Virus record (IMG/VR): IMGVR_UViG_3300038679_000051
Location: 224,001 to 288,000 of that record
Strand: one strand, 5' to 3'
DNA: 64,000 bases
Source of the DNA: a virus
Lineage: Duplodnaviria; Caudoviricetes
Position numbers and translations under genes: made by a program. Positions 15,676 to 33,435 of this stretch are shown one piece after another. Numbering within the stretch: the first letter of the stretch is position 1; each line of letters starts with the position of its first letter. The notes below the pieces were generated by a model. That model saw nothing but the letters and a program-made list of their open reading frames with translations. It searched no databases and was not told the DNA's origin.

Positions 15676-17010
15676 TCAATATTTATAAATAAATCGCAAT
15701 TTTTCTTTTCCCATAACTTTCTCATATTTTATTGAATTTGCGTATTCTTGTTCTTTCATGCCCATTTTAACAGCATGGTCCCACAATGTCTTCTTATGTA
15801 TTACATACCCATCTTTACCGACATACCAATAATCGGGTTTGACAGTTCCGTCTAATTGCCAATTTGAAGCTTTATAAATCGTTCCTGTATGATTGTGTGA
15901 TGTATCTGCGAATGTGATTAAATATTTTAAAGCTGGAAGTTCTGCTTCTATCATTTTCATGCATCTTGATATGAACCATGTAGCAAAATTCTTTTTTTGA
16001 TAGGCTGGATGAATGCAGAATCTTGATAATTCGCGTATTTCTGCCGTTTTTATACCAAGTTTATCAGCGGATTCTTTTCTAGTGATTGTAGAAAAAGCGC
16101 ATACGGCAATTAGATCATTACCTAATTTAACTCCATATCTAATGGAATTCTTACCAATCCTACCAAAGTAGTGATATTTTGCGACAAATTTCCTAGCTTC
16201 ATCATCAGTAATGTGAATGATTTCGACGTCGTCAAATGAGAAATCAATTGGGTTCCAGCCTGATCCAGTCCAATATTTAATCAAATCGACGATCCTGTCC
16301 TTGCAATGAAATTCATGCTCCCAAATGTGTTTTAATTTTAGATGTGGGAAATAACGTTCAAGATATGTGGCTTTTGCTTGATCATTTATCTTCGCCTTAT
16401 CCTTTTTGTGCCAATACTCGCCTTGGCATTCTATGATGAGGTTGTGATCTGGTAAGATGCAATCATAAGTCCAGAACCCAATGATTTTTTCAATTTCATA
16501 TTTAATCTTCAAATCATCTAAAATTGAATATAAAATCAATTGTATTGATGATGGCTTTCCTAATTGGTCATTTGCTAAATATGCCATCTTTTCTTTTACA
16601 GTATCATATTTCCCGATCATCTTTTTCACATATGATTGATCTTGCCATAGTTCTTTCATTCGTCGTTGTATTTTGTTCGATCTCAATAATGATGCTTCTC
16701 TAAAAGATCTCCCTTTAATGTTATATTGTTTAAAAGACTTGTTAATCGTTGCGATGGATACTCCGGCTTTTTTGGCTAATTCAGGTTTTGACATCCTTTT
16801 GTCATAATAATTAATTTTAAACCATTCTTCGGTTAAGAAATCAGGTAATCTTGGTTTGATTGGAATGCCAAATTTTTTTAATCTTCTATAAAGAAATTGA
16901 TCGTTGACGTTAAACTTTTTGACTATTTCTGAATATGGTGTCGTAGCATATAACTTTTCAAGACCTTCTTTCGTGTCAAATTCTGGTCCCATTATTTTGA
17001 AAAATTTCAT
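15676..17010 (-). CDS. HTH repeats + Vsr/DUF559-like endonuclease + Mom-like GNAT DNA-modification domain fusion
   Basis: TYDCILPDHNLIIECQGEYWH...DQAK nuclease motif; KYHY...ELSRFCIHP...WFISR...LITFAD..H.GTIYKASNW Mom-family motifs. Confidence 0.8.
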   Translation of the reverse strand: MKFFKIMGPEFDTKEGLEKLYATTPYSEIVKKFNVNDQFLYRRLKKFGIPIKPRLPDFLTEEWFKINYYDKRMSKPELAKKAGVSIATINKSFKQYNIKGRSFREASLLRSNKIQRRMKELWQDQSYVKKMIGKYDTVKEKMAYLANDQLGKPSSIQLILYSILDDLKIKYEIEKIIGFWTYDCILPDHNLIIECQGEYWHKKDKAKINDQAKATYLERYFPHLKLKHIWEHEFHCKDRIVDLIKYWTGSGWNPIDFSFDDVEIIHITDDEARKFVAKYHYFGRIGKNSIRYGVKLGNDLIAVCAFSTITRKESADKLGIKTAEIRELSRFCIHPAYQKKNFATWFISRCMKMIEAELPALKYLITFADTSHNHTGTIYKASNWQLDGTVKPDYWYVGKDGYVIHKKTLWDHAVKMGMKEQEYANSIKYEKVMGKEKLRFIYKY

Positions 17011-17087
17011 GTGATCTCCTATTTGATGCCTAAATAAACTAAATACTTCATTTACTTCACTGACATTATATTTTAGTCAAATTTTTT

Positions 17088-17510
17088 ATGGAGGTGGTAA
17101 CAATGGAAGACACTCAAATAGAAATAGCATTAAAAATTGAAATCAGAGAGGGTGGGACCATATTAATCCCGGGATGTGAGCCAATTTCGGAGTTAACTAG
17201 TCCATTGTTTGCACAACGATTAGATTGTAGTGCCAGTGAGATATCGGCAAAACAGGCGATGAAATTGATTCCGGGATCTTACATTTACGTCAATCCATTC
17301 TCACCCAGTAAGAGATTTCTGGTTCTACCAAGTGGCCCACCACCATATGGTAATGATTGTCCGAGAAGAAGATGTGACGATTGGTATTCATATCTGCGTG
17401 AGACGGTTACGCCGACGCCTGATGAGACGCCGCTTCAATGTAATTCGGCGGCATTCGATTTTTCATGGTGTAAAGACATAGACAAAGAAGCAGCGGCAAT
17501 GGCAAAATAA
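17088..17510 (+). CDS. hypothetical protein
   Basis: 140-aa ORF; no motif recognised. Confidence 0.5.
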   Translation: MEVVTMEDTQIEIALKIEIREGGTILIPGCEPISELTSPLFAQRLDCSASEISAKQAMKLIPGSYIYVNPFSPSKRFLVLPSGPPPYGNDCPRRRCDDWYSYLRETVTPTPDETPLQCNSAAFDFSWCKDIDKEAAAMAK

Positions 17511-17547
17511 TTATGAGCATTATGGTCACAAAAATAATTGGGAGACG

Positions 17548-18144
17548 ATGATGCAACCAAATCCGCAACACACGCCATTAAATAAGACGGCAATAGACCG
17601 TCAAACTGATTTTCGCAATGACACCGAAAAGGAGAGCAGTCCTCTATCGGTATACCAAGACAATGCTGATGGCGGCATTGCTGAAAACATTGCAGAAGAA
17701 TTCATAAACATTTCCGGTGCGTGGGTCATTATCAAGGTACGTACAAACCACGATGGATATGATGATGTTTGGGATGAGGACGTAGATCCGACATATAAGA
17801 ATGGTTTCAAAACTAAGGCATACTTCAAGACGGAACCATTACAGACGGAATTGACTAAGTGGGGTGTCGACGTTCCAAATAAAACGACCATTACGTTTCC
17901 GCGTGCGAAGATTTATCACCAATTCGGGAATAGAATGTTGCGGGCTGGCGATCTCATAGACGTGCCATATGGTGCGATCATCAACGTGCCGAAACAATTG
18001 GTAGATACGTCGGCTTTACATTTGGTTCAATATCGAGTATTGAACACCTACGAGACTGGGAATTTCAAATATCGATGGTTGTATTTGAATTGTGATGCTG
18101 AGGTAATAACTGGCGACATGACTGTACGCAAAGATACTTTCTAA
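17548..18144 (+). CDS. neck/head-completion protein, T4 gp14-like
   Basis: EEFINISG...DDVWDED...KAYF...LTKWG...AGDLI pattern. Confidence 0.7.
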   Translation: MMQPNPQHTPLNKTAIDRQTDFRNDTEKESSPLSVYQDNADGGIAENIAEEFINISGAWVIIKVRTNHDGYDDVWDEDVDPTYKNGFKTKAYFKTEPLQTELTKWGVDVPNKTTITFPRAKIYHQFGNRMLRAGDLIDVPYGAIINVPKQLVDTSALHLVQYRVLNTYETGNFKYRWLYLNCDAEVITGDMTVRKDTF

Positions 18145-18344
18145 GTATTTAAACAGATGGAGAGTGATATGCCATATCAGCGTTGAAGAAGAAATGGCGT
18201 GATCCAATTTATAGACATAAAATTTCGTCTATTAAACATGATTCAGACCGTACGTAAGGACAATTTCTAAACATGTAATTAATATCATCATTTAAATATA
18301 AAATATGATTCATTTTAATGGCTCATTTTTAAAGGAGAAATACG

Positions 18345-18908
18345 ATGAGAATAAATTCGATGGTTGGTCGATTTGCTGGCACAATTACGTTCACTGATGG
18401 GACCATTGAAGTCTTTCACACACAAGGTGAATGGGACGTCAACGGCATAAGTCGGGCCTGGAGTATTGATGAAAACGAATCTAAAGAAGCATTGAAACAA
18501 GTAAATTGGCATTTAAATCCGAATTATCCACCAGATGGACCACAATATCCATATAAAACTGGGGTTGATTTATTTAACATTATGAATGGTTTGTTTCCAT
18601 TTGCTGGATGTGTTTGGGCCAATACACATCCAGCTGCGCAAAAAATTATTTCTGACATGACTTCTCGTTTGGATTTGACATTGGCGCGTGACGACAATAA
18701 AACTTATCAAGTTGCTGCCGTCATATATAAATTTCCGAACGTCATTTTGGAAGGGTTGCCTTTTGCGACGCATCCACCACAATCATTGGTGTCGGTGTCA
18801 TCGGTTGCTGATAGAAGTTCCATGACGGATGCCACCAATCTTGCTGCTGTTAAAGTATTGATTCGTACTGCTTTTAACGTCATCATGGAGACCGTTACGG
18901 TTTCATAA
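18345..18908 (+). CDS. hypothetical, possible virion protein
   Basis: AAGGAG RBS, TAAATATA upstream. Confidence 0.6.
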   Translation: MRINSMVGRFAGTITFTDGTIEVFHTQGEWDVNGISRAWSIDENESKEALKQVNWHLNPNYPPDGPQYPYKTGVDLFNIMNGLFPFAGCVWANTHPAAQKIISDMTSRLDLTLARDDNKTYQVAAVIYKFPNVILEGLPFATHPPQSLVSVSSVADRSSMTDATNLAAVKVLIRTAFNVIMETVTVS

Positions 18909-20462
18909 TTTTGCTAAATATCCTTCTGGGTGACCAGACAAATCTTTGATTCCACCATTTTCAACGATTGATTTGAATTGTTCACGGAACACGAAGTATA
19001 GACGAATGACGCCGGATGGTTGTTCTTTCCAATCTTCAATTTTTAACACATCATCTGCTAATTCCTGTGTGATTTTCGCGCCAGCACCAACCGATACTGT
19101 TTGCATCACTGAGACGTCGTTGCCGACTGCCTCGCCGTCATATGACATCGTATATACATCACAGACACTGATGTTGCGAGCACCAATAGGCCCTGTGCAT
19201 CCTGTCGTATATACATCACAGACACTGATGTTGCGAGCACCAATAGGCCCTGTGCATCCTGTTGGACCCGATGGACCCGATGGACCAAAAAACGAACGTT
19301 CGATGTTGTTCTGTCTACGTGTCTTTGGTTCGAAGAAAGCAAAACCAAATGCTGGAACAGTGTTGTGTTTACTAATGATGAGAGAGGCTATGTCCTTCTG
19401 TTCGTCTTTAGTGAAGAAGAATTGTCGCACCACACCGTTTGGCAATCTAAAACCATCAAGCCATAAATTGTCTGGATGAGCAACATATGATTTTGATGGC
19501 CATTTGTGACCACATTCCTCACACAATCTACCCTCTTTGAATTTCGTCTTATGGACTGGACATTCATTTTTATATTGTTCCAATTCTAGTTTTTCAAATT
19601 TTTGGCCGGTAATTGGATTCATGCCCTTGATACTGGGGAGAACGGCGACGTTTAGGGCATCATTCTCAGTCCAATCAAACCATAAACCAAAATCAGGATC
19701 GACTGGACAGACATAACAACCTTCACCGCGCATCCATTCTTGTGGACAACCTGGCAGAGCGTCAACTGGAAACACTGGGACTGGTGCTCCTGGTGGTAAA
19801 GCATTGCTTTCATTGTCGGTCAACAATGGTGCTCGCATCAACCTAGCCGTGAAATTGCCGACTTTCATCTTTCTGACATAACCGGATTTGGCTATAGGAA
19901 CGGCGTAATTAATGCCGTTTCTTTCACGAATGCGCGTGATCTGGTCGTTGATCATTTGTACGCTGTTGGCATAATTGTTGGTATCCACGCCGTAGATCAT
20001 ACCAAACCCCAATTTAGAGGCCATTTGCATTGCTCGTTGTCTAGTCGTAGTATTTGCAGCAATCATATATAGAAATTCCCAACCGATGACTTCCTTCTCC
20101 CCCATCAATTTTGCCAATTCATCGGACGTGATTTTGCTCTCGTTTTCCTCACCGTCAGTGAATGCGGCAATAATTATGTGGTCGGCTTTGCTCTTCTCAA
20201 CATGTCTAACGGCGTACGCTACGGCATCCAGCAACGCCGTGCCGCCGTTAGCTTGAAACGTTTGTAAACGTTCCATTTTCGACAAATTCACCCCATCAAT
20301 GACGATTTCTGATTTGTTGCTAAACGTTATGACGTTTACGGTGCAGTCATCGTTGATCTTACGTTGTTCTTCAATCAATTTGTTGATCGAAGCGATTGCC
20401 GTTTCCATTAGACATTGCATCGATCCACTACGATCAATTATCAACGTTAATTCTGTGGACAT
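18903..20462 (-). CDS. vWA domain protein fused to an uncharacterised C-terminal domain
   Basis: MIDAS motif IIDRSGSM, GGTALLDA, FTDGEEN; C-terminal LPPG..P.FP...LW.D...WLDG...VRQF domain. Confidence 0.8.
   Translation of the reverse strand: MSTELTLIIDRSGSMQCLMETAIASINKLIEEQRKINDDCTVNVITFSNKSEIVIDGVNLSKMERLQTFQANGGTALLDAVAYAVRHVEKSKADHIIIAAFTDGEENESKITSDELAKLMGEKEVIGWEFLYMIAANTTTRQRAMQMASKLGFGMIYGVDTNNYANSVQMINDQITRIRERNGINYAVPIAKSGYVRKMKVGNFTARLMRAPLLTDNESNALPPGAPVPVFPVDALPGCPQEWMRGEGCYVCPVDPDFGLWFDWTENDALNVAVLPSIKGMNPITGQKFEKLELEQYKNECPVHKTKFKEGRLCEECGHKWPSKSYVAHPDNLWLDGFRLPNGVVRQFFFTKDEQKDIASLIISKHNTVPAFGFAFFEPKTRRQNNIERSFFGPSGPSGPTGCTGPIGARNISVCDVYTTGCTGPIGARNISVCDVYTMSYDGEAVGNDVSVMQTVSVGAGAKITQELADDVLKIEDWKEQPSGVIRLYFVFREQFKSIVENGGIKDLSGHPEGYLAKL
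19148..19261. repeat. perfect 57-bp tandem duplication (19 codons)
   Basis: TCGTATATACATCACAGACACTGATGTTGCGAGCACCAATAGGCCCTGTGCATCCTG x2, in frame in the vWA gene. Confidence 0.95.
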
Positions 20463-20471
20463 GTCGTTTCT

Positions 20472-20539
20472 CCTTTATCCTTTATCCCTTTGTCCTTTAT
20501 CCCTTTGTCCCTTTGTCCCTTTGTCCTTCCTCCCTTTAT
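20472..20539 (-). repeat. array of about nine 7-8 bp Shine-Dalgarno-like units
   Basis: minus strand A(C/T)AAAGG(G) units fill the whole intergenic gap upstream of the vWA gene. Confidence 0.85.
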
Positions 20540-20988
20540 AACAAATCCTCACCCTCACCGTCTGAACCAATCGAGCCGCAAGAACCGGTCGCCCCCGTCG
20601 GGCCGGTTGGACCTTGTGCGCCAGTATAACACATTGTATTGGTTTGGAAGTTGCTGCGCCAATGCCATTCATCGAAGAAAATCTTCCTAGAATCATCATA
20701 GGAAAGTTCGACTGTGGTATCGGTAGTGAGAATGAATAAATCTATAAGTTTATGATATTCACCAACATACAAAATTGGGACAGGAAGATTAATGTTGTGC
20801 GAAACCTTCTTGAACTTCTTTGCCAACGTTAATTTTCGTTTCAATACTTCGACCAACAGTTTGTTGTATTTCTTCAACGCTATCTTATAATTCTTGATGT
20901 GGGCTTCCCTGTGTTTCTTCAACGCCTTAAGAATTGCTTGTGTTTCGAACTTTAGATTCATTTCCATGTGGTTTCTCCTTTTTATCAT
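20536..20988 (-). CDS. hypothetical protein with short Gly-X-Y C-terminal tail
   Basis: likely start 20967 (AGGAG RBS); ends YTGAQGPTGPTGATGSCGSIGSDGEG. Confidence 0.65.
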   Translation of the reverse strand: MIKRRNHMEMNLKFETQAILKALKKHREAHIKNYKIALKKYNKLLVEVLKRKLTLAKKFKKVSHNINLPVPILYVGEYHKLIDLFILTTDTTVELSYDDSRKIFFDEWHWRSNFQTNTMCYTGAQGPTGPTGATGSCGSIGSDGEGEDLL

Positions 20989-21151
20989 TGTATCTAACTG
21001 CGTAACCGGCCTCGCCTTCTATGCGATGCCCGGTTCTTGCCGCATGTCGAGATGCGTTTCTCGGTCCATGTTCATGATCTTGGGTACTCCACTTGCAGTC
21101 CTGGCATTCTGCAAGGAAGCGTACCAGAAATTGTCTATGTCTGCGTTTCAT
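20927..21151 (-). CDS. small Cys/His-containing hypothetical protein
   Basis: ATGA overlap with upstream gene; CxxC plus HAARTGH. Confidence 0.5.
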   Translation of the reverse strand: MKRRHRQFLVRFLAECQDCKWSTQDHEHGPRNASRHAARTGHRIEGEAGYAVRYNDKKEKPHGNESKVRNTSNS

Positions 21152-22002
21152 GCGTTCCAATCACGATGCTGGAAGAATGGATCAGCTTTACTGTTCGGCG
21201 TAGAAGATAATTTCCGACGCAATTTCGGTAATCTATCATCTTCTTTAAGCGTTTTAAAGGCTAGATCATTCGATGGTATTCTGATTCGTTCAATACCTTT
21301 CTTGATTAGATCATGAATCCCGACTGCATCTAATTTTGTACCGTTGTTGATGGCTACTCGGACGTAGATGCGATCTTCTTCCGGAAGAATGCTCCAGTCG
21401 TTTAAACACTTTTCACACCAACCATTGACTAAGGCGATGTCTGAATGGATTGGGCATTCTTCAATCCAAATCATTGGGAATTCACCGACGCGACACAATC
21501 GATAGACATGACCTTCGACGTTCATAATGCTTGGTGTGTTACGACGTCGTGCGACGTGCAACATTCTTATGCTGGCATTTACGTTTACCATATCGCCATC
21601 AAATGCAATGAATGGTCTGTCGTTTGATCGTCGTCGTAATTCTGATGCAATTTCCGACGAACAATCAGGGCCATATGCCTCAATTAATTCGTTGTCCTTC
21701 CATTGTGAGACCGGGCGCAGAGTAGACATCACATCGATGATTAGGTTTGATTCTTCTGATTTCTCCACGCCTTTCAGAATTGCCCATCCAGCACAAAATC
21801 TGGCAATTTTTACACCGTGTTTATCGACAAAGATCGCTCTGGCATCACCCTCTTTGGTGGTTCCTGCTTTGAGCATCCGATCATCATCAATGCCGAGTTC
21901 ATTAAGATATGACAAAACATCGGAAACCGACAGTTTCATTGTGTCGGCTGCTTTTGTGATCTCTTGTTCTTTGAAGGGGGTAGACGGGACATGATTACTC
22001 AT
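21148..22002 (-). CDS. hypothetical protein with possible Zn ribbon
   Basis: AGGAG-like RBS; CPIH...WCEKC. Confidence 0.7.
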   Translation of the reverse strand: MSNHVPSTPFKEQEITKAADTMKLSVSDVLSYLNELGIDDDRMLKAGTTKEGDARAIFVDKHGVKIARFCAGWAILKGVEKSEESNLIIDVMSTLRPVSQWKDNELIEAYGPDCSSEIASELRRRSNDRPFIAFDGDMVNVNASIRMLHVARRRNTPSIMNVEGHVYRLCRVGEFPMIWIEECPIHSDIALVNGWCEKCLNDWSILPEEDRIYVRVAINNGTKLDAVGIHDLIKKGIERIRIPSNDLAFKTLKEDDRLPKLRRKLSSTPNSKADPFFQHRDWNA

Positions 22003-22073
22003 CTTATTTCTCCTCTCGCTCGCAAACGCCTCATGACTCTGGACTAATCAGCACATCGCCTTTCGTCCGCTCC

Positions 22074-22081
22074 TATAAATA
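22074..22081 (+). promoter_or_regulatory. T4-type late promoter TATAAATA
   Basis: exact TATAAATA in the intergenic gap upstream of the operon leading to the gp15-like gene. Confidence 0.45.
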
Positions 22082-22137
22082 CATACGCATGTCAGGATTA
22101 ATGAAAATTCTGTTGAAAAATAAATTAGGGAGGACAT

Positions 22138-22479
22138 ATGTTTACGCTTAAATTTAATGTCTTAAACATGAAAGAGGTACAACAAAAGATGTTGAAAGCC
22201 GTTGAAGGACACATCTCGAACATGTCACCAATAATTGCGCAAATGGCGCGAGAAGAGATGGAGAAATTATCGAAATTTCCAATGTCAGTGAAGATGAATG
22301 GGAATGCAGCACAAATAAGTCCGATTACCAAGAATGAAAAGGAGTCGGAGGAAGCTGTCGATGAGGCTACCAAGGGGGCCAGTCCGCAATTTATGACGCA
22401 ATTTAAATTTAAAAATAAATCCTGGGTGACGCGAAGTCTCAAGATGAAAATGAAGGATGTCAAACATGGGAATTTATAA
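22138..22479 (+). CDS. hypothetical protein
   Basis: GGAGG RBS; 113 aa. Confidence 0.6.
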   Translation: MFTLKFNVLNMKEVQQKMLKAVEGHISNMSPIIAQMAREEMEKLSKFPMSVKMNGNAAQISPITKNEKESEEAVDEATKGASPQFMTQFKFKNKSWVTRSLKMKMKDVKHGNL

Positions 22480-23341: not shown

Positions 23342-23391
23342 TTGTCCATGTATTTAATTTTGGGTATTTCTAAAAAGAAAAGGAGGATGTA

Positions 23392-23682
23392 ATGGCTACA
23401 CGTCCGATGACACAGAGAGAGATCAAGAAGCAACTGGATGCACAGAAGAAGCTGGATTTCGTAGTAGTATACAATTGTTCAAACCAATTAATAAATTTGC
23501 AAATCGAAAGACAATCTAAGCCGGGTCACAAGAAGCTTGATTTCTTTCATGCGCAACAGAACGTGCAATTATATCCAAAGAAGACCGTGAAACTGCCAAA
23601 ATCAATAACGATGACCGAACAACTCAAAAACCTTCAAGCTAAGGGATTTCTGAAGATATTGGGCCAATCATCAGAAGAATGA
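23392..23682 (+). CDS. small hypothetical, paralog of 61305..61550
   Basis: VYNCSNQ...YPKKTV...EQLKNLQAKG aligns with IRNVSNG...KPQTNV...EQILNLRRKN. Confidence 0.65.
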   Translation: MATRPMTQREIKKQLDAQKKLDFVVVYNCSNQLINLQIERQSKPGHKKLDFFHAQQNVQLYPKKTVKLPKSITMTEQLKNLQAKGFLKILGQSSEE

Positions 23683-24277: not shown

Positions 24278-24308
24278 ATCCACAGGTGGATTGAACCACC
24301 AGGTGGTT
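24278..24308. repeat. tandem short palindromes ATCCAC-ag-GTGGAT and AACCACC-a-GGTGGTT
   Basis: read directly; sit at the 5' breakpoint of the truncated Mom-like gene. Confidence 0.6.
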
Positions 24309-24639
24309 TCAAAGGAAATGTCAACTTTCCTCATGGTTTCTATCACGTGTGACTAAAATGTTATGGAATGATAAACCATTAATCAAGAAAATCATTACGT
24401 TTGCTGATACGACATATGGTCATGAAGGCACAATTTATAAGGCAGCAAATTGGACGTTGATCGGACAAGTGAAGCCCGATTATTGGTATGTTGATGAACA
24501 TGGTAATCGATTCCACAAGAAAACAATATGGGATCATGCCTCAAAAATGAGTCAAAACGAAGAAGAATATGCCAATTTATATGGATTAAATAAAATTGTT
24601 GGTGGTATGAAACATAGATATGTTATTGATCGACCGTAG
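24307..24639 (+). pseudogene. 5'-truncated Mom-like GNAT fragment
   Basis: FQRKCQLSSWFLSR...IITFADTTYGHEGTIYKAANW...VKPDYWYV...HKKTIW homologous to C-termini of 15676 and 31648; frame closed by TGA at 24292-24294. Confidence 0.75.
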
Positions 24640-24736: not shown

Positions 24737-27610
24737 ATGCCAGTTTACCTCTCTCCGGGCGTATTTCCACGTGAAATCGATCTGAGCGTAATCCCGACTG
24801 CAGTTGGTCCGTTACGCCCAGCGTTTATTGGGACCGCAAAGAAAGGTCCAATGAATGCTCCAACATATGTGACTACGTCACAACAATTTATTGATACGTT
24901 CGGGACGCCATTCCCAGAATCGTTCATGGGGTATGCCGTCTTGGCCTACATGGAAGAGGGTAATCAGGCATACATCCTTCGTGCTGGCGTGGAATGTGAA
25001 GAAGGCCAGGTAGAAGAATTGGCCGACATTTGCATAGATACGAGCGGTGCCAATGGACATGGTTGGGGTCGAATACCAGTATTTACTGGCATTGATTATG
25101 GTAAAATTCGTCTGCGCAGCGTTTCAACTACTGAACCATTGGCATTCCACAGCGCGGCCATAACTGACATTTATTTTAGTGATATGGATGTAACGGTTCC
25201 TACTGCAGCGACTTTGTCATTTGTCGGCGGTGGTTTGTCGGATGCATATGCTGGCGCAATCGATGATTCTTATTTGCTTTTGATCACATCCGCACCAACG
25301 ACTGGTGCGATGATAGCCGGTGCAACATATGAAGTCATACGCAACAGCGATGGCGTGATCATTGCATCTGGCATGTTGTCTGAATCGGTCGTTGGGCAAT
25401 CAGATCCAATTACGTTAGTTGATGGCATGATTTGCAGCATAATCGTTACGTCTGGTGAATTGGACGTACAAGACAGCTTTTCTTTTAATGCCCGACCCGA
25501 CAATAGAAGTTTTGGATTTGCGGTTGATCTCTCACAATCACCGACGGTCAACATCCACAGTTTTAATGATGGCGAATCATTCACTGATGCCGATACGTTC
25601 GTCACTCGTTTCAATGCCATAATCGGCGGTTCTGAGGATTATAAAGCCGTTCATGAAGATGAAATCATTTACATTCGTTCTGACGTTGCGGGTGTCAACA
25701 TTCAAATGCAACATTCTGAAGCTTGGGCTTTGGAAGTTGGTCGCAGTTTGTATGCTTATGACATCCCACGATCATTCTTGATTTCTACTGATGCTGGTCC
25801 ATTCAACATCACTGCCAACAACAACCGAATCAAAATGACGGTAGTGGATGGCGAGCCGGTTCAAGCCACTACGGATTTAGAATTCTCAATCCCAATTGGT
25901 TTGAATTTGACGACCGCACAAGTAGCAGCTGGAATTCAGCCAGGCGGCATCAAGAATGGTTCAAGATTTTTCAATGCATACCCATTGGAAATATCAACTG
26001 GCGTCTATTACGTGGTGATTGAGACGGCAGTAGATCATTGTTATGGGGTATTGAAATTGCAAGCCAATCTGAGCAACGTTCGGACGTTGCGATTTGCTGA
26101 AGAATTGGAAATTCAATATCCATACTATCGGAATTTCCGGACTTATGGTGATAGTCGAGCCATGTTGCCGACGACTGGCGTCATTACGCCATCCGTGCCG
26201 CTCTCATGTGAAATCGACCCATTGTCCGATGATTGTGCACTTGATAGTGCATATTTTGCAGGCATTGTCGGCTGGTTTGTGGCGAAATCCCCCGGCACCT
26301 GGATCGACAGCTATACTCTTGATTTGACGCAGCGACTGACCGGAACCACCAGTGGTGGTTCCGTACAACAAGCTGGACATTTTGACATAACATTGCGTGA
26401 TTTGTCTGGCGTGACCGTTGATCGCGTTGAAGACGTTACATTTGATCCGCGTGATTCACGTTTCGTCGGAAACGTCATCAATGCAGGGTCTACGCTCGGC
26501 GGATTCAATGGCAATGCCTTCATCCAATGGGAATCTCGTCCGTCATTTTTGGCAAACGATCCGCTCGATCCAACGACGTTCGTGGTGCGCGTACCAAGCC
26601 CAGTCAATCGTGGTGCGTTCATTGATGCGGCCAATGGCATACCGACCGATCCAGCTTATTCTAGTGAATTGGATCGCGTGTTCATCGGCAATCCAGCCAA
26701 GGAAAGCGGCATTTATGCCTTCCAGAACCCAGAAGTATTCGACATCAATCTGTTGTTGGTGCCTGGTGCGTCATCTGGTGCGGTCATTGGTCAGATGTTG
26801 CAATTCTGTGAAGCACGTGGTGATGTGCTTTCGATCATTGATCCGCCTTTCGGATTGCGCCCACAACAGGTCGTCGATTGGCACAACGGCATGTTGTTCG
26901 CTGATCTACAGAACAGCATTAATAGTTCGTATGGTGCATTGTATTGGTCCTGGTTGCGGATCTTTGATCAATACAACGGCGGGGACATTTACATACCACC
27001 TAGCGGCCACGTCAGTTCAGTCTTCGCTCGTACGGCTCGTGTAGCGGAACAATGGTTTGCACCCGCTGGTCTTAATCGCGGTCATTTGCTCACGCCGACG
27101 GCAGTTGAATTCAATCCGACGATGGGTGAACGCGATTTGCTCTACGGTTCAGGAAACGCCGTCAACCCAATCGTCAATTTCGTGCAAGACGGCATCACGA
27201 TTTGGGGTCAACGGACGCTTCAACGCCGTCAGAGTGCGTTGGATCGCGTAAACGTCCGAATGTTGTTGATTTACATCAAGAAGAATTTGTCGAGAGCGTT
27301 ACGACAGTTCATCTTTGAGCCGAACGATAGAATTCTCTGGGCACAAGTCCGATCGGTCGTCAATCCATTCTTGGCCGACATTCAGGCACGGCGTGGTTTG
27401 CAAGCGTTCAAAGTGGTGTGCGACGAGACCAACAATACGCCTGAACGGATCGATCGCAATGAGTTGTGGATATCAGTCTTCCTCAAACCCACAAGAGCGG
27501 TGGAATTTATCGTGCTCAACCTTGTCATTCTCAGAACCGAGGCGAGCTTTTCGAGTGAAGAAGTCCTCCAAGCAGGCGGTGTAGTAACGCAACAACCAGC
27601 GTCTGTATAA
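24737..27610 (+). CDS. tail sheath protein, gp18-like
   Basis: YLSPGVFPREID, FIGTAKKGP, YGALYWSW, WFAPAGLNRG, VNPI...GITIWGQRTL..RVNVRML, FIFEPND. Confidence 0.97.
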   Translation: MPVYLSPGVFPREIDLSVIPTAVGPLRPAFIGTAKKGPMNAPTYVTTSQQFIDTFGTPFPESFMGYAVLAYMEEGNQAYILRAGVECEEGQVEELADICIDTSGANGHGWGRIPVFTGIDYGKIRLRSVSTTEPLAFHSAAITDIYFSDMDVTVPTAATLSFVGGGLSDAYAGAIDDSYLLLITSAPTTGAMIAGATYEVIRNSDGVIIASGMLSESVVGQSDPITLVDGMICSIIVTSGELDVQDSFSFNARPDNRSFGFAVDLSQSPTVNIHSFNDGESFTDADTFVTRFNAIIGGSEDYKAVHEDEIIYIRSDVAGVNIQMQHSEAWALEVGRSLYAYDIPRSFLISTDAGPFNITANNNRIKMTVVDGEPVQATTDLEFSIPIGLNLTTAQVAAGIQPGGIKNGSRFFNAYPLEISTGVYYVVIETAVDHCYGVLKLQANLSNVRTLRFAEELEIQYPYYRNFRTYGDSRAMLPTTGVITPSVPLSCEIDPLSDDCALDSAYFAGIVGWFVAKSPGTWIDSYTLDLTQRLTGTTSGGSVQQAGHFDITLRDLSGVTVDRVEDVTFDPRDSRFVGNVINAGSTLGGFNGNAFIQWESRPSFLANDPLDPTTFVVRVPSPVNRGAFIDAANGIPTDPAYSSELDRVFIGNPAKESGIYAFQNPEVFDINLLLVPGASSGAVIGQMLQFCEARGDVLSIIDPPFGLRPQQVVDWHNGMLFADLQNSINSSYGALYWSWLRIFDQYNGGDIYIPPSGHVSSVFARTARVAEQWFAPAGLNRGHLLTPTAVEFNPTMGERDLLYGSGNAVNPIVNFVQDGITIWGQRTLQRRQSALDRVNVRMLLIYIKKNLSRALRQFIFEPNDRILWAQVRSVVNPFLADIQARRGLQAFKVVCDETNNTPERIDRNELWISVFLKPTRAVEFIVLNLVILRTEASFSSEEVLQAGGVVTQQPASV

Positions 27611-27621
27611 CATATTTTTAG

Positions 27622-27664
27622 GATAAAGAAAAGGGGAGGCGATAAACCTCCCTTTTTCTTTATC
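27622..27664. terminator. rho-independent (likely bidirectional) terminator after sheath
   Basis: GATAAAGAAAAGGGGAGG-cgataaa-CCTCCCTTTTTCTTTATC, 18-bp stem with A/T tracts. Confidence 0.85.
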
Positions 27665-27700
27665 GGAATTATTGCAAAGCATACATAACAGGAGATTGGT

Positions 27701-28141
27701 ATGAAATTGAAGATGCTTTACGAAAATCTAAAGAAAGAGTATGATAAAGATAAACACGAAAATTTAGAGGCCATTGCAGAAATAGCAGGTGCATATATCA
27801 TTAAAAAAGACCGAGACGAATTTTATTCAAATAATCCGAGAGCATGGATGACTGATGATCCAAATTTAAAAGACGAGCGTGGTAATATCATAGCAAAATG
27901 GTATTTGGTGGATTTGGGTGAATCTGGTCCAAGACCAGAACCAGAGGCATGGTGGGCACACGAGAAATATCGATTGGGCGATCCACACAGGAAAAATGAC
28001 TTCTACATCAAATCATTGCAAGTTAATCCCCCTGATCCAATATATGACCGGGGACTTGGCGGATTTCAATTTTATCCTAAAGATTTCTGGAAACAAGAAG
28101 GAATAAAATTTGGATTTGGGAACGATACAATCAGTTTCTAA
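27701..28141 (+). CDS. hypothetical protein
   Basis: AGGAG RBS; begins MKLKMLYE. Confidence 0.65.
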   Translation: MKLKMLYENLKKEYDKDKHENLEAIAEIAGAYIIKKDRDEFYSNNPRAWMTDDPNLKDERGNIIAKWYLVDLGESGPRPEPEAWWAHEKYRLGDPHRKNDFYIKSLQVNPPDPIYDRGLGGFQFYPKDFWKQEGIKFGFGNDTISF

Positions 28142-28215
28142 GAGACGGCACATCCAACCACACAACCACATAAACAACAAAACATTTACGAGCTTGTGTG
28201 AGGTATTTAAATGAT

Positions 28216-28291
28216 GCGTGTGAAGCATAGTGATCGATGCGCCTGACTACCAGTTGGGAGAGGGGAGTGTAATTCTCGCCCACACGCTCCA
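28216..28291 (+). tRNA. atypical tRNA-Gly (anticodon ACC)
   Basis: acceptor GCGTGTG/CACACGC, U73, encoded CCA, D-stem GCAT/ATGC, anticodon arm CCTGA-CTACCAG-TTGGG; T-loop TGTAATT, bulged T-stem, A8 and no D-loop GG are non-canonical. Confidence 0.75.
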
Positions 28292-28299
28292 AAACGTCA

Positions 28300-28485
28300 T
28301 TTTGTGCAGCCTACTTGGTACGGAAGACCAAGTAAAAGCGCGGATAACAATTCCTAAGGGCGAAACAGTGAACAGTGCAGGCCCGCGACGAAGGAAAGTC
28401 GGCAACTAAACCCCTTCACCCGGTGGGCAGGAACATTTACCGTAAGTCAAACCATTGCGGACTTGTTGAAACCGGGTAAATTTTT
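28300..28485 (+). ncRNA. candidate structured RNA / leader of unknown class
   Basis: hairpins TACTTGGT/ACCAAGTA, GGGC/GCCC, CGAC/GTCG, AAGTC/GACTT and alternative pairings of 28471-28481. Confidence 0.3.
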
Positions 28486-28500
28486 AAATAGGGGTGCAAA

Positions 28501-28776
28501 ATGCCATTATTTGTCGATTTAGAAGGTGTGATGGGCGGAGAATTAGAGGGACCGCTTGTGGGCACAGTCCAACAGGCAATGACGTCTTTAAAGACATCTC
28601 GGATTGTCAGTGGGGCTGGCGATAATGGGGCATGGCACGTTTATGTTCGAGACGATGACAAGTATGTTTGTTGTTTTTATCGTCACTTTACAAAAATAAA
28701 CGAAATGACTTTTACATCAAAAACTCAAGTGAGAATGTGGTTGCGGGAATGGTTGCCGAGAATACAGCACCAATAA
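28501..28776 (+). CDS. hypothetical protein
   Basis: 91-aa ORF with AGGGG RBS. Confidence 0.55.
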   Translation: MPLFVDLEGVMGGELEGPLVGTVQQAMTSLKTSRIVSGAGDNGAWHVYVRDDDKYVCCFYRHFTKINEMTFTSKTQVRMWLREWLPRIQHQ

Positions 28777-28795
28777 CTTGGTGGGGAGGGCACAA

Positions 28796-29014
28796 ATGTT
28801 CAGCATAAGAGAGAAGAGAGAAATTTCGGATGCCGTGCAAAAGATTCTGCGAGCAACAAATCATCCGGAATTGCCATCGGGTGAGATTCAGTTTCATTTA
28901 CATGTAGTTGGTGCAGAATCATGGTCATGGGCGGACATTCTCAATAATGGGGCGGTGGTAACGCCTGGACGCAATCCATGGAATGAATCGCAAGATAAGG
29001 AAGCAGTGATATGA
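28796..29014 (+). CDS. small hypothetical phage protein
   Basis: MFSIREKREISDAVQKILRATNHPELP...AESWSWADI; GGAGG RBS. Confidence 0.65.
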   Translation: MFSIREKREISDAVQKILRATNHPELPSGEIQFHLHVVGAESWSWADILNNGAVVTPGRNPWNESQDKEAVI

Positions 29015-29472
29015 TATCAGTTTCTATTAAGAACATGCTGGATACCAAAAATGTCACAAATCTTGTTGGGAACATTATAAAAAATACGATATTTAGCATG
29101 GGCGTTGATACGAACAGCAGTCCTATATCCGGTCAATTCAAAGACGTGCAGAGAAATTTATTGGTGGACATTGATAAGGATGATCTTGACAATTTAATGT
29201 CATTAGCCGTCAGACAATATAGCGAGACTGAAGGTGAGATTATGGAAAAATTCCTGCGATTCGACCGAAACGTTGCTGCTGTAAAAGGATATATACCAAG
29301 ACAAAAAGTCATTGAATCTTTTTGTGTATTGCTGATATATAATCGCATCAGAGAAGAAATCTGCTCGGCGGTAATGTCGAATACGATCCATGATGTGCAT
29401 GTTCCAATTGAATTACCAAGATCAGCAGAATGTGTACAATTCAATCTTGTGCTAGCTGAAACAGGCAATTGA
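29011..29472 (+). CDS. hypothetical protein
   Basis: ATGA overlap; 153 aa. Confidence 0.55.
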   Translation: MISVSIKNMLDTKNVTNLVGNIIKNTIFSMGVDTNSSPISGQFKDVQRNLLVDIDKDDLDNLMSLAVRQYSETEGEIMEKFLRFDRNVAAVKGYIPRQKVIESFCVLLIYNRIREEICSAVMSNTIHDVHVPIELPRSAECVQFNLVLAETGN

Positions 29473-29502
29473 CTAGAAATGATGTGATGATAAAAAAGAG
29501 AC

Positions 29503-29757
29503 ATGAGATACCGCGTCGATTTCAGCAGATTGGCTAGGACGGAAGATGAAGTCATGAAACATAAATTAGTCAGGGAATTCGTAGATGCATTATTCCAAAC
29601 GTATAATCTGAATCGTAAGGAACATCTTCCAGATGGACATATATTGGATGAAATATTCATCGAAGAGGATCGTGATCTATCGGGGATGGACATAATGAAC
29701 GAGCATGTGATTCCGGCATATCCTGAGGCGAAATTGCAATCATGGGATAAATGGTAA
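29503..29757 (+). CDS. hypothetical protein
   Basis: 84-aa ORF in operon. Confidence 0.55.
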   Translation: MRYRVDFSRLARTEDEVMKHKLVREFVDALFQTYNLNRKEHLPDGHILDEIFIEEDRDLSGMDIMNEHVIPAYPEAKLQSWDKW

Positions 29758-30116
29758 TGATCAAGATGATAGTTGCTGGCAGCAGGGCGTTCGTTGATTA
29801 TGGATTTCTTAAAAAACAATTAGATGAATTCCTTTCATGTTTGTCAGATTCAGACGTTACAATAATATCTGGAATGGCTAAGGGTGCGGACATACTTGCT
29901 GTTAGATATGCCGAGGAACATCATTTACCAATCATCAAAATGCCCGCTGATTGGATTAAACATGGCAGAAGTGCAGGATATAATAGAAATTTAGAAATGG
30001 CCAAAATTGCCACACATTTAGTGGCGTTTTGGAACGGCAAATCACGGGGCACGAAGCATATGATCGACATTGCCGTTTTAAAGGGGTTGACGACTAAAGT
30101 AATCATCGTACCCTGA
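29751..30116 (+). CDS. SLOG-superfamily protein (DUF2493/YspA-like)
   Basis: IVAGSR, IISGMAKGAD, PADW..HGRSAGYNRN, VAFWNGKSRGT..MI. Confidence 0.9.
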   Translation: MVMIKMIVAGSRAFVDYGFLKKQLDEFLSCLSDSDVTIISGMAKGADILAVRYAEEHHLPIIKMPADWIKHGRSAGYNRNLEMAKIATHLVAFWNGKSRGTKHMIDIAVLKGLTTKVIIVP

Positions 30117-30196
30117 TGTATGACGATGCGTGAAGCATAGGGATGTATTTAATGCTGGGGTGGGTATGCCTACGCTTCATTTGAAGAAAGGAGGAG

Positions 30197-30448
30197 ATGA
30201 TGAATGCTGTTGATGAAATACAGAAAAGAATAATTCTGACGAAAATTAGAAAGATGCTTGATGAAAAATTGAAGTTAGAAATAACTGAGATGACTGAGAC
30301 AAAGAAGATAGAACAGCAGATAAACCAAGCTGTAACGTTTTTTAGTGAGAAATATCCGCAAGTTGAATTTAAGGTTCAGACCGACACTGTCGATGGGAAA
30401 CTGCAATATACGATAGATATATGGTTAGAAACTGAGACGATCGATTAA
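30197..30448 (+). CDS. hypothetical protein
   Basis: GGAGGAG RBS; 83 aa. Confidence 0.6.
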   Translation: MMNAVDEIQKRIILTKIRKMLDEKLKLEITEMTETKKIEQQINQAVTFFSEKYPQVEFKVQTDTVDGKLQYTIDIWLETETID

Positions 30449-30990
30449 CGCACCCTGATGTGTTTTTTCAAACCTTCAGCAGTTGCGCCAGGCGTCAAGA
30501 CTAAGCTGATCGGCATCGTCCACCAATTTCCAACTTCTTCTACAGTGATGGTTTCGTCGGCCAATTCATCTTCATCGACGTCAGCTAATTCTTCATTTAA
30601 GAAATCAACAATGTTGCTCAATTCATTGTCGGTAAATTTCGTCATCTGAAAATTATGATCTTGCACTCGTATCCATCCCATATGATCCATCGCGTAATCA
30701 CGTGGGTCCGACCCGTCTTTCAACCATTCTATGGCTTCCTCATTTGCATCATTTTGACGCAACCATGCGATGGCCTCATCAGACAACGGTGTCATTATTT
30801 CCATTTGTGGTGCCGATGCATCCTCAAAAGCGCTGATACCTAAGGCCGCTTCAAATGCCGCCATAGCATGATTATAATCACCTATGTCGCCGTCGGCAAA
30901 CGTTGCCATGCCACTGTCGTCAATCCACCATTCGCCCCTCAACGACGATTCATTGAGAATGATTGGTTTGTATAATCTAGTGATCTTCAT
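30445..30990 (-). CDS. acidic hypothetical protein
   Basis: 181 aa; begins MKITRLYKPIILNES. Confidence 0.65.
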   Translation of the reverse strand: MKITRLYKPIILNESSLRGEWWIDDSGMATFADGDIGDYNHAMAAFEAALGISAFEDASAPQMEIMTPLSDEAIAWLRQNDANEEAIEWLKDGSDPRDYAMDHMGWIRVQDHNFQMTKFTDNELSNIVDFLNEELADVDEDELADETITVEEVGNWWTMPISLVLTPGATAEGLKKHIRVR

Positions 30991-31076
30991 ATGGTATTTT
31001 TTGTTCGTATTTTAATGATTTTTCGTCATTACAATTTCCGTCAAAGATATTACAGACCAGAATGGAGGATTTAAAC

Positions 31077-31601
31077 ATGCCAGGATTCACGATTCAGGGT
31101 GGTGAAAACGATGGTGGCCAAATAGTCAGCAATACGGTTGAAACCCGTAGAAATCACCGTTGGCGATGGACGTCAATGGGTAATGCCGTCCAGCCGGACG
31201 TTCTGATTTTGTTGCAGAAATGTCAGCGTCCGAAATTTACTAACGCTGAACCCGAATTGCATCACAATCAAGAAGTAGCCTATTTCATCGGCAAACAAAC
31301 ATGGGATCCGATTGAGATGGCATTCTACGATGCCGAACAACAACCAGATTGTTCAAGAGAAATCTGGAAATGGTTGAAGATTGGTAATTTACTCGATCAA
31401 GCAAACGTCAGCATACCGAAAACGTATAAGAAACGTGGACAGTTGGATATGGTGGATGGTAAAGGCAGCGAAACCGAAACGTGGTTCGTCCATGGTGCAT
31501 GGCCGAAAGAAGTCAGTTATTCTGAGAACGATTATACGAATACTGAAATTGCACTAATCACGGTAAGTCTGCGCTATGATCGTGCAGAAAAAACGAAATA
31601 A
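31077..31601 (+). CDS. tail tube protein, gp19-like
   Basis: RNHRWRW...CQRPK...VAYFIGKQTWDPIEMAFYD...WFVHGAWP...ITVSLRYD; GGAGG RBS. Confidence 0.9.
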   Translation: MPGFTIQGGENDGGQIVSNTVETRRNHRWRWTSMGNAVQPDVLILLQKCQRPKFTNAEPELHHNQEVAYFIGKQTWDPIEMAFYDAEQQPDCSREIWKWLKIGNLLDQANVSIPKTYKKRGQLDMVDGKGSETETWFVHGAWPKEVSYSENDYTNTEIALITVSLRYDRAEKTK

Positions 31602-31647
31602 TAATTCGTTTAATTAAATTCAGAAACATTCAACGTATTTTAATCAA

Positions 31648-33435
31648 ATGATCGATTGGAATAAAACTAAACAAAAATTTGGATTGACTGAATCTATCGT
31701 AACCAGTAAATCACTGGTCGTAGTAGTATGTGATGAATGTAAATCAGAACGAGTCATAAAATATGTTGGACATAAAACCATCATCAAAGCCCATGGTAAT
31801 TCATTGTGTTCGTCGTGTCGTAGTAAAAGCATAAGAGTGATTCACGCTGAGGCATTTACTAAATCAGATGTGAAACGAGCGGAGACGTTGTCTAGAACAT
31901 ATAAAAAGAAATGGCAGGATAAGAAATATAGGAAGACACAACATGAAATAAGGAATAATGATTATCGTTCTAAGATCAGTAATGCATCTAAACAATGTTG
32001 GCAAAATGATGATTATAGACATAAAGTTGTCCATGGAATTAATGAGAAATGGAATGATCAAGAATACCACCAAAAATTTATTGAAATAATGAACAGCGAT
32101 GAAGTAAAAAAGAAATTGATGGACAATTGGAAGAATCATAAATATCGTGATAAAGTTCTTGCTATATGGGATGATGAGGATGTTGTGAAAGAATTTGCAA
32201 AACGGATGAGTTTACATAGCAAACGAATGTGGTCCGATCCAGAATTGAGATCGAAGATGATTGCTTCACTGAAGAAGCGATGGGAGAGTCTAGAATTAAG
32301 AGAACATGCTTCAAACGTCAATAAAGAGATCTTTTCCACGCCAGAGATGAGAATAAAATTATCGAAGAATGCACAAGATAAGGCAGCTGATCCAGAATGG
32401 CATAAGAACGTATCGGATGGCGTGAAGAGAGCATTTGCCTCAGATCCAGATATGAAACAAAAAATGTCTAGTCGATCAAAGAAATTATGGCAGAATGAGG
32501 ATTATAGAGAGAAGATGGCTGTCGTACAAGCAAATCACCCAGTCATAAGTTCATTGGCACGTAAGTTTTATGCAATGTTGACGCAAATGAATATAAAATA
32601 TGTTGAGGAAGGTCCCGAAACAAAATTTGGTCCATGGACGTTTGATTGTCTAATACCGAAGCAAGGTAATATGCAAAAACATTTATTGGTTGAAGTTCAT
32701 GGTGAATATCCACATTCAAGAGAGGATACGAAAATAAGAGATGCAGCAAAGGCGACATATGCGAATAGATATTTGCTTGATTATGAATTAAAAGTCGTGT
32801 GGGAGCAATGGTTTCTATTTAGAAATAAAGTAGAGGATATGGTTAGAGAATGGATTGGGATTAAAGAGAATACGACGTTGGTTGATTTCTCACTGAATGA
32901 CGTTAAAACTATAGAATCATCTTACAAGGAATGTCTTGATTTTCTTTCTCGACATCATTATCTTTATACTTGTCCACGAGGATCAACATATTATAAGGCA
33001 GTCATTAACGATGAGATTGTGGCAGTTTGTTTATATAGTCCATTAATAAGACAAAACATTGGCATTAAAAATTGTCTTGAATTATCGCGTTTCTGCGTCC
33101 ATCCATCATACCAAAAGAAAAATTTTGCCTCTTGGTTAATTTCGAGGACTAATAGGTTATTGAAGATGGATAAACCGGAGACGGAAACAATAATAACATA
33201 TGCAGATTCTACAGTCGGTCACGTTGGTACGATTTATAAGGCGGCTAATTTTAAATTAGATCATATAGTTGAGCCTGATTATTGGTATGTTGATAAAGAC
33301 GGTTATGTCGTACATAAACGGACATTATATGCTCGTGCCTGTAAAATGAGTCAGAAGGAACGTGATTATGCAGAGAACCATGGTTATAAAAAAGTCTGGG
33401 GTGGTGAAAAACGACGTTATTCAATTAATTTGTGA
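31648..33435 (+). CDS. Zn finger + helical repeats + Vsr/DUF559-like endonuclease + Mom-like GNAT fusion
   Basis: CDEC..CSSC; repeated W.D..YR.K units; TFDCLIP...VEVHGEYPH...DAAK; RHHY...ELSRFCVHP...IITYAD..GHVGTIYKAANF. Confidence 0.8.
   Translation: MIDWNKTKQKFGLTESIVTSKSLVVVVCDECKSERVIKYVGHKTIIKAHGNSLCSSCRSKSIRVIHAEAFTKSDVKRAETLSRTYKKKWQDKKYRKTQHEIRNNDYRSKISNASKQCWQNDDYRHKVVHGINEKWNDQEYHQKFIEIMNSDEVKKKLMDNWKNHKYRDKVLAIWDDEDVVKEFAKRMSLHSKRMWSDPELRSKMIASLKKRWESLELREHASNVNKEIFSTPEMRIKLSKNAQDKAADPEWHKNVSDGVKRAFASDPDMKQKMSSRSKKLWQNEDYREKMAVVQANHPVISSLARKFYAMLTQMNIKYVEEGPETKFGPWTFDCLIPKQGNMQKHLLVEVHGEYPHSREDTKIRDAAKATYANRYLLDYELKVVWEQWFLFRNKVEDMVREWIGIKENTTLVDFSLNDVKTIESSYKECLDFLSRHHYLYTCPRGSTYYKAVINDEIVAVCLYSPLIRQNIGIKNCLELSRFCVHPSYQKKNFASWLISRTNRLLKMDKPETETIITYADSTVGHVGTIYKAANFKLDHIVEPDYWYVDKDGYVVHKRTLYARACKMSQKERDYAENHGYKKVWGGEKRRYSINL

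Follow-up and report, generated by a model that had tools for sequence, protein, structure and literature searches.

What does a tRNA-shaped gene do among the structural genes of a phage when it keeps every feature by which glycyl-tRNA synthetase (GlyRS) would recognize it and has lost many of those used in translation? This question is raised by a 76-nt element at positions 28216-28291 of a 64,000-nucleotide stretch of viral DNA (the window), which is the minus strand of 32427-96426 in a 151,476-bp IMG/VR virus record (G000) and which also carries loci of the Mom family of DNA-modifying enzymes. Mom of phage Mu moves glycine from Gly-tRNAGly to the N6 of adenine (PMC13219725; Nat Commun 2026), as the sequence-only reading of this locus had correctly stated. 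All three E. coli isoacceptors serve the Mu enzyme, Gly-tRNAAla does not, and recognition is probably at the acceptor end; this dependence on Gly-tRNAGly has been established only recently, its authors leave open the cost to translation and the part of the tRNA that is recognized, and they mention no phage-encoded tRNA (PMC13219725). Here we report that the window element belongs to a conserved family of tRNA-Gly derivatives that recurs beside Mom genes, and we propose that it is probably a dedicated glycine donor for DNA modification. The element and the Mom genes (called with Pfam PF25680 at a cut-off of 27.1 bits) are as follows.

28216..28291, + strand: atypical tRNA-Gly, 76 nt, anticodon ACC, CCA encoded (cloverleaf fold, compensatory changes, covariance-model matches)
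15676..17010, - strand: Mom fusion gene, 444 amino acids (aa) (Pfam Mom 100.3 bits, residues 263-442; weak HTH_28 match)
24307..24639, + strand: Mom remnant, C-terminal half of the domain only, directly upstream of the sheath gene (Pfam Mom 59 bits)
31648..33435, + strand: Mom fusion gene, 595 aa, directly 3' of the tube gene (Pfam Mom 67.9 bits, residues 427-584)
G000 27740-28279 and 31180-31755, just outside the window: two intact Mom fusions (Pfam Mom 104 bits each)

The G3-C70 base pair is a member of the GlyRS identity set. In the window tRNA it lies within a perfect 7-bp acceptor stem (GCGUGUG/CACACGC), which is followed by U73 and an encoded CCA. Positions 8 and 9 are both A, U8 being absent. 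The D arm has a 4-bp stem (GCAU/AUGC) and a loop, AGUGAUCG, without GG (no G18G19); the anticodon arm has the stem CCUGA/UUGGG and the loop CUACCAG, which is self-complementary at C32-G38 and 33-37; the variable region is AGAG; and the T arm has a bulged stem, GGGAG/CUC(G)CC, and the loop UGUAAUU, without U55-C56. The minimum-free-energy fold is the cloverleaf. The GlyRS identity set listed for bacterial tRNA-Gly (PMC7826273) is complete (G1-C72, C2-G71, U73, C35 and C36), G3-C70 is present in addition, and the anatomy is thus that of a tRNA-Gly with intact aminoacylation identity and degenerate translation features, just as had been described from the letters.

Standard tools overlook this gene. 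With default settings ARAGORN called no tRNA in the window, and over its whole length no Rfam family reached its gathering threshold; the Rfam tRNA model (RF00005) scored the element at 18.3 bits, below its gathering score of 29, and at an 80% threshold ARAGORN returned it as one of 77 mostly spurious matches in 151 kb. By single-sequence score the element is therefore at the level of noise, as a decaying tRNA pseudogene or a chance cloverleaf might be. The comparative sequence data settle that it is a real tRNA gene. An nhmmer search found one homologue (L073:6866-6941), which has other gene neighbours and lies in the 11.3-kb contig G025. The two copies differ at 12 positions, and all nine of the substitutions that fall in stems keep the pairing, with no broken pair: both bases of a pair have changed, with compensation, at three places in the acceptor stem and at one in the anticodon stem, and one G-U pair is replaced by A-U. 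The similarity starts and stops at the tRNA boundaries, and the flanks are unrelated. Furthermore, when 873 kb of DNA from related phages were scanned as a control, a perfect 7-bp stem followed by NCCA occurred in 52 chance-type instances, and only the window copy and its homologue have the D and anticodon stems, and so all stems, in register; homologues are also found across phyla, as described below. Because of this covariation, the pseudogene or chance explanation is effectively refuted, and we give it next to no weight.

The gene derives from tRNA-Gly. A covariance model (R1) was built from the window and G025 copies and run with filters off on the cluster of 30-odd tRNAs of G004, a relative with a complete genome of 370 kb. 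The model's top matches were the two canonical tRNA-Gly genes, at 33.1 and 31.8 bits, ahead of a tRNA-Arg at 26.8 bits, and the window element is therefore a tRNA-Gly derivative. With default filters, R1 found only the two near-identical copies in 26 whole related records; that scan is insensitive, because the canonical tRNA-Gly genes were missed too. G004 has about 40 tRNAs in all, and its tRNA-Gly genes (GCC and UCC) have G1-C2-G3 and U73 as in the window copy, and their D and T loops are normal. In the 34 G004 tRNAs examined, CCA never follows the ARAGORN-called end, although two (Ala and Lys) end in UCCA and may include it. Since ordinary tRNA-Gly genes without an encoded CCA are present there, the atypical gene is an extra one. 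The G004 cluster also holds an ARAGORN call with a four-base anticodon, taag (L077:975-1050).

We recognized members of the family by a one-nucleotide bulge that follows the second pair of the T stem on its 3' strand, by C32 together with G38, by a Gly-type acceptor and by homology to other members. The window tRNA has these sequence features and matches L109, L176, L285 and phage B2_17; model R2 scored it at 83.3 bits. When seven distinct Mom-linked copies were aligned, 99.3% of the cells were paired and 17 of the 21 pairs showed a compensatory change. Pairs 1-3, U73, C35, C36, C32 and G38 are invariant in this alignment, and pairs 4-7 covary. The T-stem bulge occurs in six of the seven aligned copies, and in B2_17 and Y8A as well; that of the window tRNA is common to G025, L109, L176, L282 and L285. 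Scans of IMG/VR and the JGI metagenomes for exact motifs taken from the window copy recovered only the G025 contig and, for the anticodon/T-arm motif, the L176 contig, and the D-arm pattern AAGCATAGNNNNCGATGCG had three matches in 401 Acidobacteriota genomes, two of which are chance matches that are not tRNA-like. Neither the region nor the tRNA had a blastn match among cultured phages.

Whether such tRNA-Gly genes accompany Mom in relatives had been set in advance as a test that could refute the idea, and its outcome is strongly positive: Gly-type tRNAs flank Mom genes in nine independent contexts, in four bacterial phyla and in jumbo phages. We fetched 77 loci centred on Mom fusions, 863 kb in total, in which ARAGORN found six tRNAs, four Gly and two Gln. 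The four tRNA-Gly genes lie 0-24 nt from a Mom stop codon, and the two tRNA-Gln genes are 2.4 and 5.5 kb off. Three of the former (L148, L152 and L154) represent one phage and have the anticodon UCC, and the fourth (L176) has ACC; the covariance model adds L109, with its tRNA 32 nt after the Mom stop. In the comparison set, 735 kb of sheath-centred loci, ARAGORN found no tRNA. All the tRNAs seen within 1 kb of a Mom gene are of Gly type. For members of the core family, at 0-709 nt from Mom, the linkage is found in four more jumbo-phage lineages, in two Acidobacteriota elements and in Salinibacter phage B2_17. G025 has three Mom genes in 11 kb, and its tRNA follows a Mom fusion, encoded on the same strand, at a distance of 709 nt. 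The acceptor and D stems of L109 are exactly those of the window copy, and L176 has the window's anticodon loop CUACCAG and bulged T stem GGGAG/CUC(G)CC, yet its D loop is canonical, with GG, and its T loop is UUCGA. A tree of 89 Mom fusions distributes those with an adjacent tRNA over at least 3-4 separate clades.

Gene order gives a further link between the window copy and its Mom-adjacent relatives, in which the following neighbours serve as reference points.

24737..27610, + strand: tail sheath gene, 957 aa, the synteny anchor (Pfam Phage_sheath_1, Phage_sheath_1C)
27611..31061, + strand: accessory island between sheath and tube, phage-specific, 3.45 kb (nine small open reading frames, ORFs, plus the tRNA-like gene)
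31062..31601, + strand: tail tube protein, gp19 family (Pfam Phage_T4_gp19; PHROG 4542 'tail tube protein', E 2e-22)

We found 67 loci related to the sheath gene. In most relatives the tube homologue follows the sheath gene after 10-100 nt, without an island, and in L013, L014, L033, L109 and L148 the junction is occupied by a Mom fusion. The order in L109 and L148 is sheath, Mom, tRNA-Gly, tube; the window tRNA lies at the same sheath-tube junction, with a Mom fusion just past the tube gene.

The linkage extends beyond jumbo phages. Four of the 401 Acidobacteriota genomes have Mom above the cut-off. A scan across prokaryotic genomes turned up the Acidobacteriota chromosome G026, in which an integrase-bounded island has a stand-alone Mom gene (Pfam 97.6 bits) preceded, at 10 nt, by a tRNA-Gly(ACC) whose CCA is encoded; this tRNA has a 5-nt D loop without GG, and its T stem, GGCGG/CCG(A)CC, has the 3'-strand bulge. 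In Acidobacteriota G346, a family tRNA begins 44 nt beyond the Pfam Mom match; it has A8, A9, the D stem GCAU/AUGC of the window copy, the loop CUUCCAG, a bulged T stem and UCCA, and it is visible to ARAGORN at the relaxed threshold only. Here (L285:1483-2274) the Mom frame is open through the whole tRNA and stops just past its CCA, so that, unless the true stop is elsewhere, excision of the tRNA would deprive the mom mRNA of its stop codon. A 55-nt element in Acidobacteriota G203 (L286:669-723) has a Gly-type acceptor stem, a CUCCCAG loop, no T arm and an R2 score of 18 bits. A Mom gene is encoded some 780 nt away on the other strand, and the element may be a further-reduced member of the family or a product of chance.

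Three cultured phages belong to the same picture. A blastn search with the G346 tRNA matched Salinibacter phage B2_17, whose sole annotated tRNA is a clear family member located 32 nt after a Mom gene (Pfam 91.8 bits) that itself follows a ParB-like gene. Microbacterium phage Warren has a ParB-like gene, a Mom-like gene and a tRNA-Gly(CCC), the last two convergent across a 32-nt gap. In Psychrobacter phage vB_PmaS_Y8A (OQ059336.1, about 7786-7926), a 165-nt gap after the ParB and Mom-like genes and before the terminase small subunit gene is filled by a tandem pair of unannotated tRNA-Gly-like genes (L296:2156-2223 and 2228-2296). Each is 68-69 nt long, with a Gly-type acceptor stem, U73, CCA, a bulged T stem and no D arm, and ARAGORN misses both even at the relaxed threshold. 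The Y8A and Warren tRNAs are Gly-type genes more divergent than the core family.

Positions directly at the 5' or 3' end of mom ORFs, together with the L285 frame that traverses its tRNA, would also suit a cis-acting element, that is, a tRNA-shaped RNase P or RNase Z processing site or a stabilizer that regulates mom or late mRNAs and carries no amino acid. A scan around the window tRNA for a promoter or terminator found none of its own, which fits a cis role, although such a scan is uninformative. In L176 and Warren, however, the tRNA converges on mom and is hence absent from the mom transcript. Moreover, a processing signal needs neither the invariant glycine identity (pairs 1-3, U73, C35 and C36) nor an encoded CCA, and the window copy is not beside a Mom gene. 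We consider a purely cis-acting function distinctly unlikely.

The copies can be arranged as a series of decay, with Warren, L148 and L176 at the near-canonical end and L109, L285 and B2_17 as intermediates; the elbow is lost in the window copy (G000) and in G025, and the D arm is absent in Y8A. Across lineages U8, the elbow nucleotides, U33, the anticodon-loop length (8 nt in some) and the D arm are variously lost, and the acceptor and anticodon identity is kept. The T-stem bulge recurs at positions read by EF-Tu. This pattern of loss is what would be expected of a tRNA that is charged and offers its 3' end without working on the ribosome, and the encoded CCA may offset poor recognition of an abnormal elbow by the CCA-adding enzyme. 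The sequence-only reading had proposed a dedicated, non-translational carrier of glycine, which at the genomic level is well supported by the linkage to Mom. We regard it as probable that the window tRNA is a dedicated glycine donor for DNA modification by Mom and stands outside translation.

Several observations weigh against this conclusion. The other family members lie 0-709 nt from a Mom gene, and the window copy falls outside about 1 kb: it is 3.36 kb upstream of the intact Mom gene (31648) and 3.58 kb downstream of the remnant, and when the sequence beside the tRNA, in the window island and in G025, was searched with a hidden Markov model for overlooked pieces of Mom, none turned up. In relatives, the majority of Mom fusions have no such tRNA. 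Filters-off searches found no family tRNA in G003 (six Mom domains in 140 kb) or within 10 kb of Mom genes in G004, G006, G012 and G020, so that the tRNA is not an obligatory partner of Mom; likewise, in five of eight groups of cultured phages with Mom-like genes no such tRNA was found. The tRNA is therefore accessory and not a requirement, a status that fits the ability of Mu Mom to work with all the host isoacceptors. Finally, GGU, the codon for an ACC anticodon, is the commonest glycine codon in the window phage (46.5% of glycine codons in the contig), and some translational role is therefore possible, especially for the near-canonical members of the family.

The last point raises the alternative that these are ordinary, if odd, decoding tRNA-Gly genes for GGU-rich phage genes, which merely travel together with mobile Mom cassettes. 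L148, L176 and Warren do keep the canonical GG and T-loop motifs and pass ARAGORN, and the jumbo phages of this clade carry large tRNA sets. Yet decoding features are progressively lost while the GlyRS identity set is kept (A8, neither G18G19 nor U55C56, the T-stem bulge), anticodon loops are of 8 nt or lack U33, positions 32-38 and 33-37 are complementary, and Y8A dispenses with the D arm. G004 already has tRNA-Gly genes with GCC and UCC anticodons, B2_17 has no other annotated tRNA, and no amino-acid identity other than glycine was found beside Mom. To our knowledge, a glycine anticodon with A34 is essentially unused in bacteria. Decoding as the main function is thus unlikely in our judgement.

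Phage tRNAs with altered loops have been reported to counter tRNA-targeting defences. The family might accordingly act as a decoy, or as a resistant substitute for host tRNA-Gly, against defences such as anticodon nucleases or GNAT toxins of the TacT type, and TacT does act on Gly-tRNAGly (PMC13219725). A substitute tRNA would require intact decoding features, however, and the repeated, specific adjacency to Mom across phyla would be left unexplained, which makes this possibility very unlikely.

If the window tRNA is a glycine donor, the following sequence of events can be proposed. The tRNA would be made as part of late structural-gene transcription and processed at its encoded CCA, and host GlyRS would charge it by way of G1-C72, C2-G71, G3-C70, U73, C35 and C36. 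The nuclease-Mom fusions would then transfer the glycyl group from the tRNA to the N6 of adenine in phage DNA, where it would rearrange to give N6-carbamoylmethyl-adenine. Loss of the elbow (G18G19 and U55C56), absence of U8, the T-stem bulge and the self-complementary anticodon loop would probably bar traffic with EF-Tu and the ribosome, and the DNA-modification pathway would thereby obtain its own glycine pool. We infer the charging by GlyRS, the avoidance of EF-Tu and the use by these Mom enzymes; that Mom would use Gly-tRNAGly here rests on the published biochemistry of the Mu enzyme. The description of the system as self-contained was too strong, as no gene for the GlyRS alpha subunit, the only subunit family searched, was found in the 151-kb contig, which is 41% complete.

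More generally, we lean towards the view that Mom and the specialized tRNA-Gly form a conserved two-gene module, mobile among phages and integrative elements of at least four phyla, in which a non-translational glycine carrier evolves toward a minimal form with the acceptor arm, the glycine anticodon signature and a bulged T arm, the elbow or the D arm being lost.

The Mom side of this module is well represented in the window. All three loci that had been assigned to the Mom family match the Pfam model, and 24307-24639 is a true remnant, as had been claimed, because it covers profile positions 85-182 only; the G025 gene at its position is an intact Mom gene of 281 aa, 60% identical to it. The gene at 15676-17010 has N-terminal helix-turn-helix repeats, a middle nuclease domain resembling homing endonucleases and a C-terminal Mom GNAT domain. 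Among the fusions, the N-termini are helix-turn-helix or zinc-ribbon modules and the middle domain has weak DUF559 and MTES_1575 matches. A profile of 48 family members matched PDB 3r3p ('mobile intron protein', which we take to be the catalytic domain of the homing endonuclease I-Bth0305I) with E 2.7e-11 over profile positions 208-300, in the middle domain, and Mu Mom (8bv8) with E 4.2e-11. Homologues of the fusions number more than 400 in the protein collection and more than 500 in IMG/VR, and they occupy varying junctions among conserved structural genes, as mobile genes do. In the tree of 89 fusions, 31648-33435 is sister, at a weakly supported fork (SH-aLRT, approximate likelihood-ratio test, 84), to the clade containing the tRNA-adjacent Mom gene of L148. 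Nuclease-Mom fusions 34-46% identical to those of the window also occur on short contigs binned into metagenome-assembled genomes of Promethearchaeota, an Asgard-archaeon group (L254-L258); these are probably mis-binned jumbo-phage contigs.

Since Mom is fused to a nuclease, the modification may guard DNA from the element's own nuclease no less than from restriction by the host. If the fusions are single-chain modules of nuclease and protection, as Iyer et al. predicted, unmodified phage DNA would be costly.

The record from which the window comes is 41% complete by CheckV. Related contigs reach 370-395 kb, and the window phage is therefore a jumbo phage. Several metagenomes from groundwater and coal also contain its DNA, and in a groundwater metatranscriptome (run X6) there are contigs identical to the sheath gene, the tube gene and parts of the island (26500-31700) of this phage. 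None of the assembled contigs of that metatranscriptome covers 28004-28756, which is uninformative on expression of the tRNA either way; small structured RNAs are usually missing from metatranscriptome libraries. One ORF of the island, 30445-30990, is on the minus strand, and another, 29751-30116 (+), encodes a SLOG/YspA-like nucleotide-binding domain (Pfam YAcAr 54.5 bits; PHROG 289). The ORF at 27701-28141 was considered as the tube gene and rejected, as it has no relatives and is an island ORF, the true tube gene being 31062-31601. A second, longer tail-tube paralogue of the gp19 family (33978-35054, +, 358 aa) follows the Mom fusion, and L152 has three tandem tube-like matches. A von Willebrand factor A domain protein of 519 aa is encoded at 18903-20462 (-), on the opposite strand amid structural genes.

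If correct, the donor proposal would describe the first class of viral tRNAs that feeds a DNA-modifying enzyme, and would provide a new functional class for odd or unexplained phage tRNAs. The natural series of Mom-dedicated tRNA-Gly genes would define the minimal tRNA features needed by Mom and by GlyRS. It would also explain tRNA-shaped genes that standard finders miss, two of which are unannotated in a published complete phage genome (Y8A), and would offer a genomic marker that predicts adenine hypermodification in uncultured phages. The hypothesis is directly testable in three cultured phage-host pairs (B2_17 with Salinibacter ruber M8, Y8A with Psychrobacter and Warren with Microbacterium foliorum).

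Mom-nuclease fusions, the dependence of Mom on tRNA and the non-proteogenic tRNAGly of staphylococci are already known. The linkage between tRNA-Gly and Mom is the new part, and we found no report of it in the searchable literature.

Compared with Mu Mom (PF25680; 8bv8, residue numbers offset by 9), the GNAT domains described here are above the cut-off, their C-terminal region aligns through the helix-turn-helix-like insertion, and the equivalents of H58, Y59, R111, S/T124, D149 and Y159 are conserved: 15676-17010 keeps H58, Y59, R111, D149 and Y159 with Thr at S124, and 31648-33435 keeps R111, D149 and Y159 with Ser at 124. Unlike in Mu, R151 is replaced by Ser or Thr in the window domains, with an invariant His three residues later, and Mom is the C-terminal domain of fusions of 430-600 aa, with at least five paralogues per genome. 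Mu has no tRNA partner and relies on the host isoacceptors.

The fusions are of a known kind, since Iyer et al. (2021, PMC7824862) had described jumbo-phage Mom fused to a restriction-endonuclease-fold domain and predicted a nuclease with a protective modification. Architecture and predicted logic are the same here. Their analysis preceded the tRNA finding, however, assumed an acyl-CoA donor and reported no associated tRNA, whereas here the nuclease matches the I-Bth0305I-type 3r3p and the genes lie at variable junctions.

Like the tRNAs of canonical jumbo-phage clusters, the window tRNA derives from tRNA-Gly; unlike them, it is isolated in the structural-gene region, encodes its CCA, has degenerate tertiary nucleotides and belongs to a Mom-linked family.

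A functional precedent, also described correctly by the sequence-only reading, is that of the staphylococcal non-proteogenic tRNAGly (NP1, NP2 and NEW). Their genes too are additional to the ordinary tRNA-Gly genes, with the GlyRS identity set intact and G18G19 and U55C56 missing. These tRNAs are charged normally, bind EF-Tu weakly, are preferred by the Fem-family transferase FmhB (PMC7826273, PMC4574755), and serve such non-ribosomal transferases (FmhB, Fem) in peptidoglycan synthesis; the lineage has been reported in staphylococci only (PMC7826273). The family described here is of unrelated lineage, and its hallmarks differ: the T-stem bulge, C32-G38, ACC or otherwise odd anticodon loops and, in some members, no D arm. 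The division of staphylococcal tRNAGly into proteogenic and cell-wall types would thus have an independent counterpart here, in a family borne by phages and mobile elements and with DNA as the proposed acceptor of glycine.

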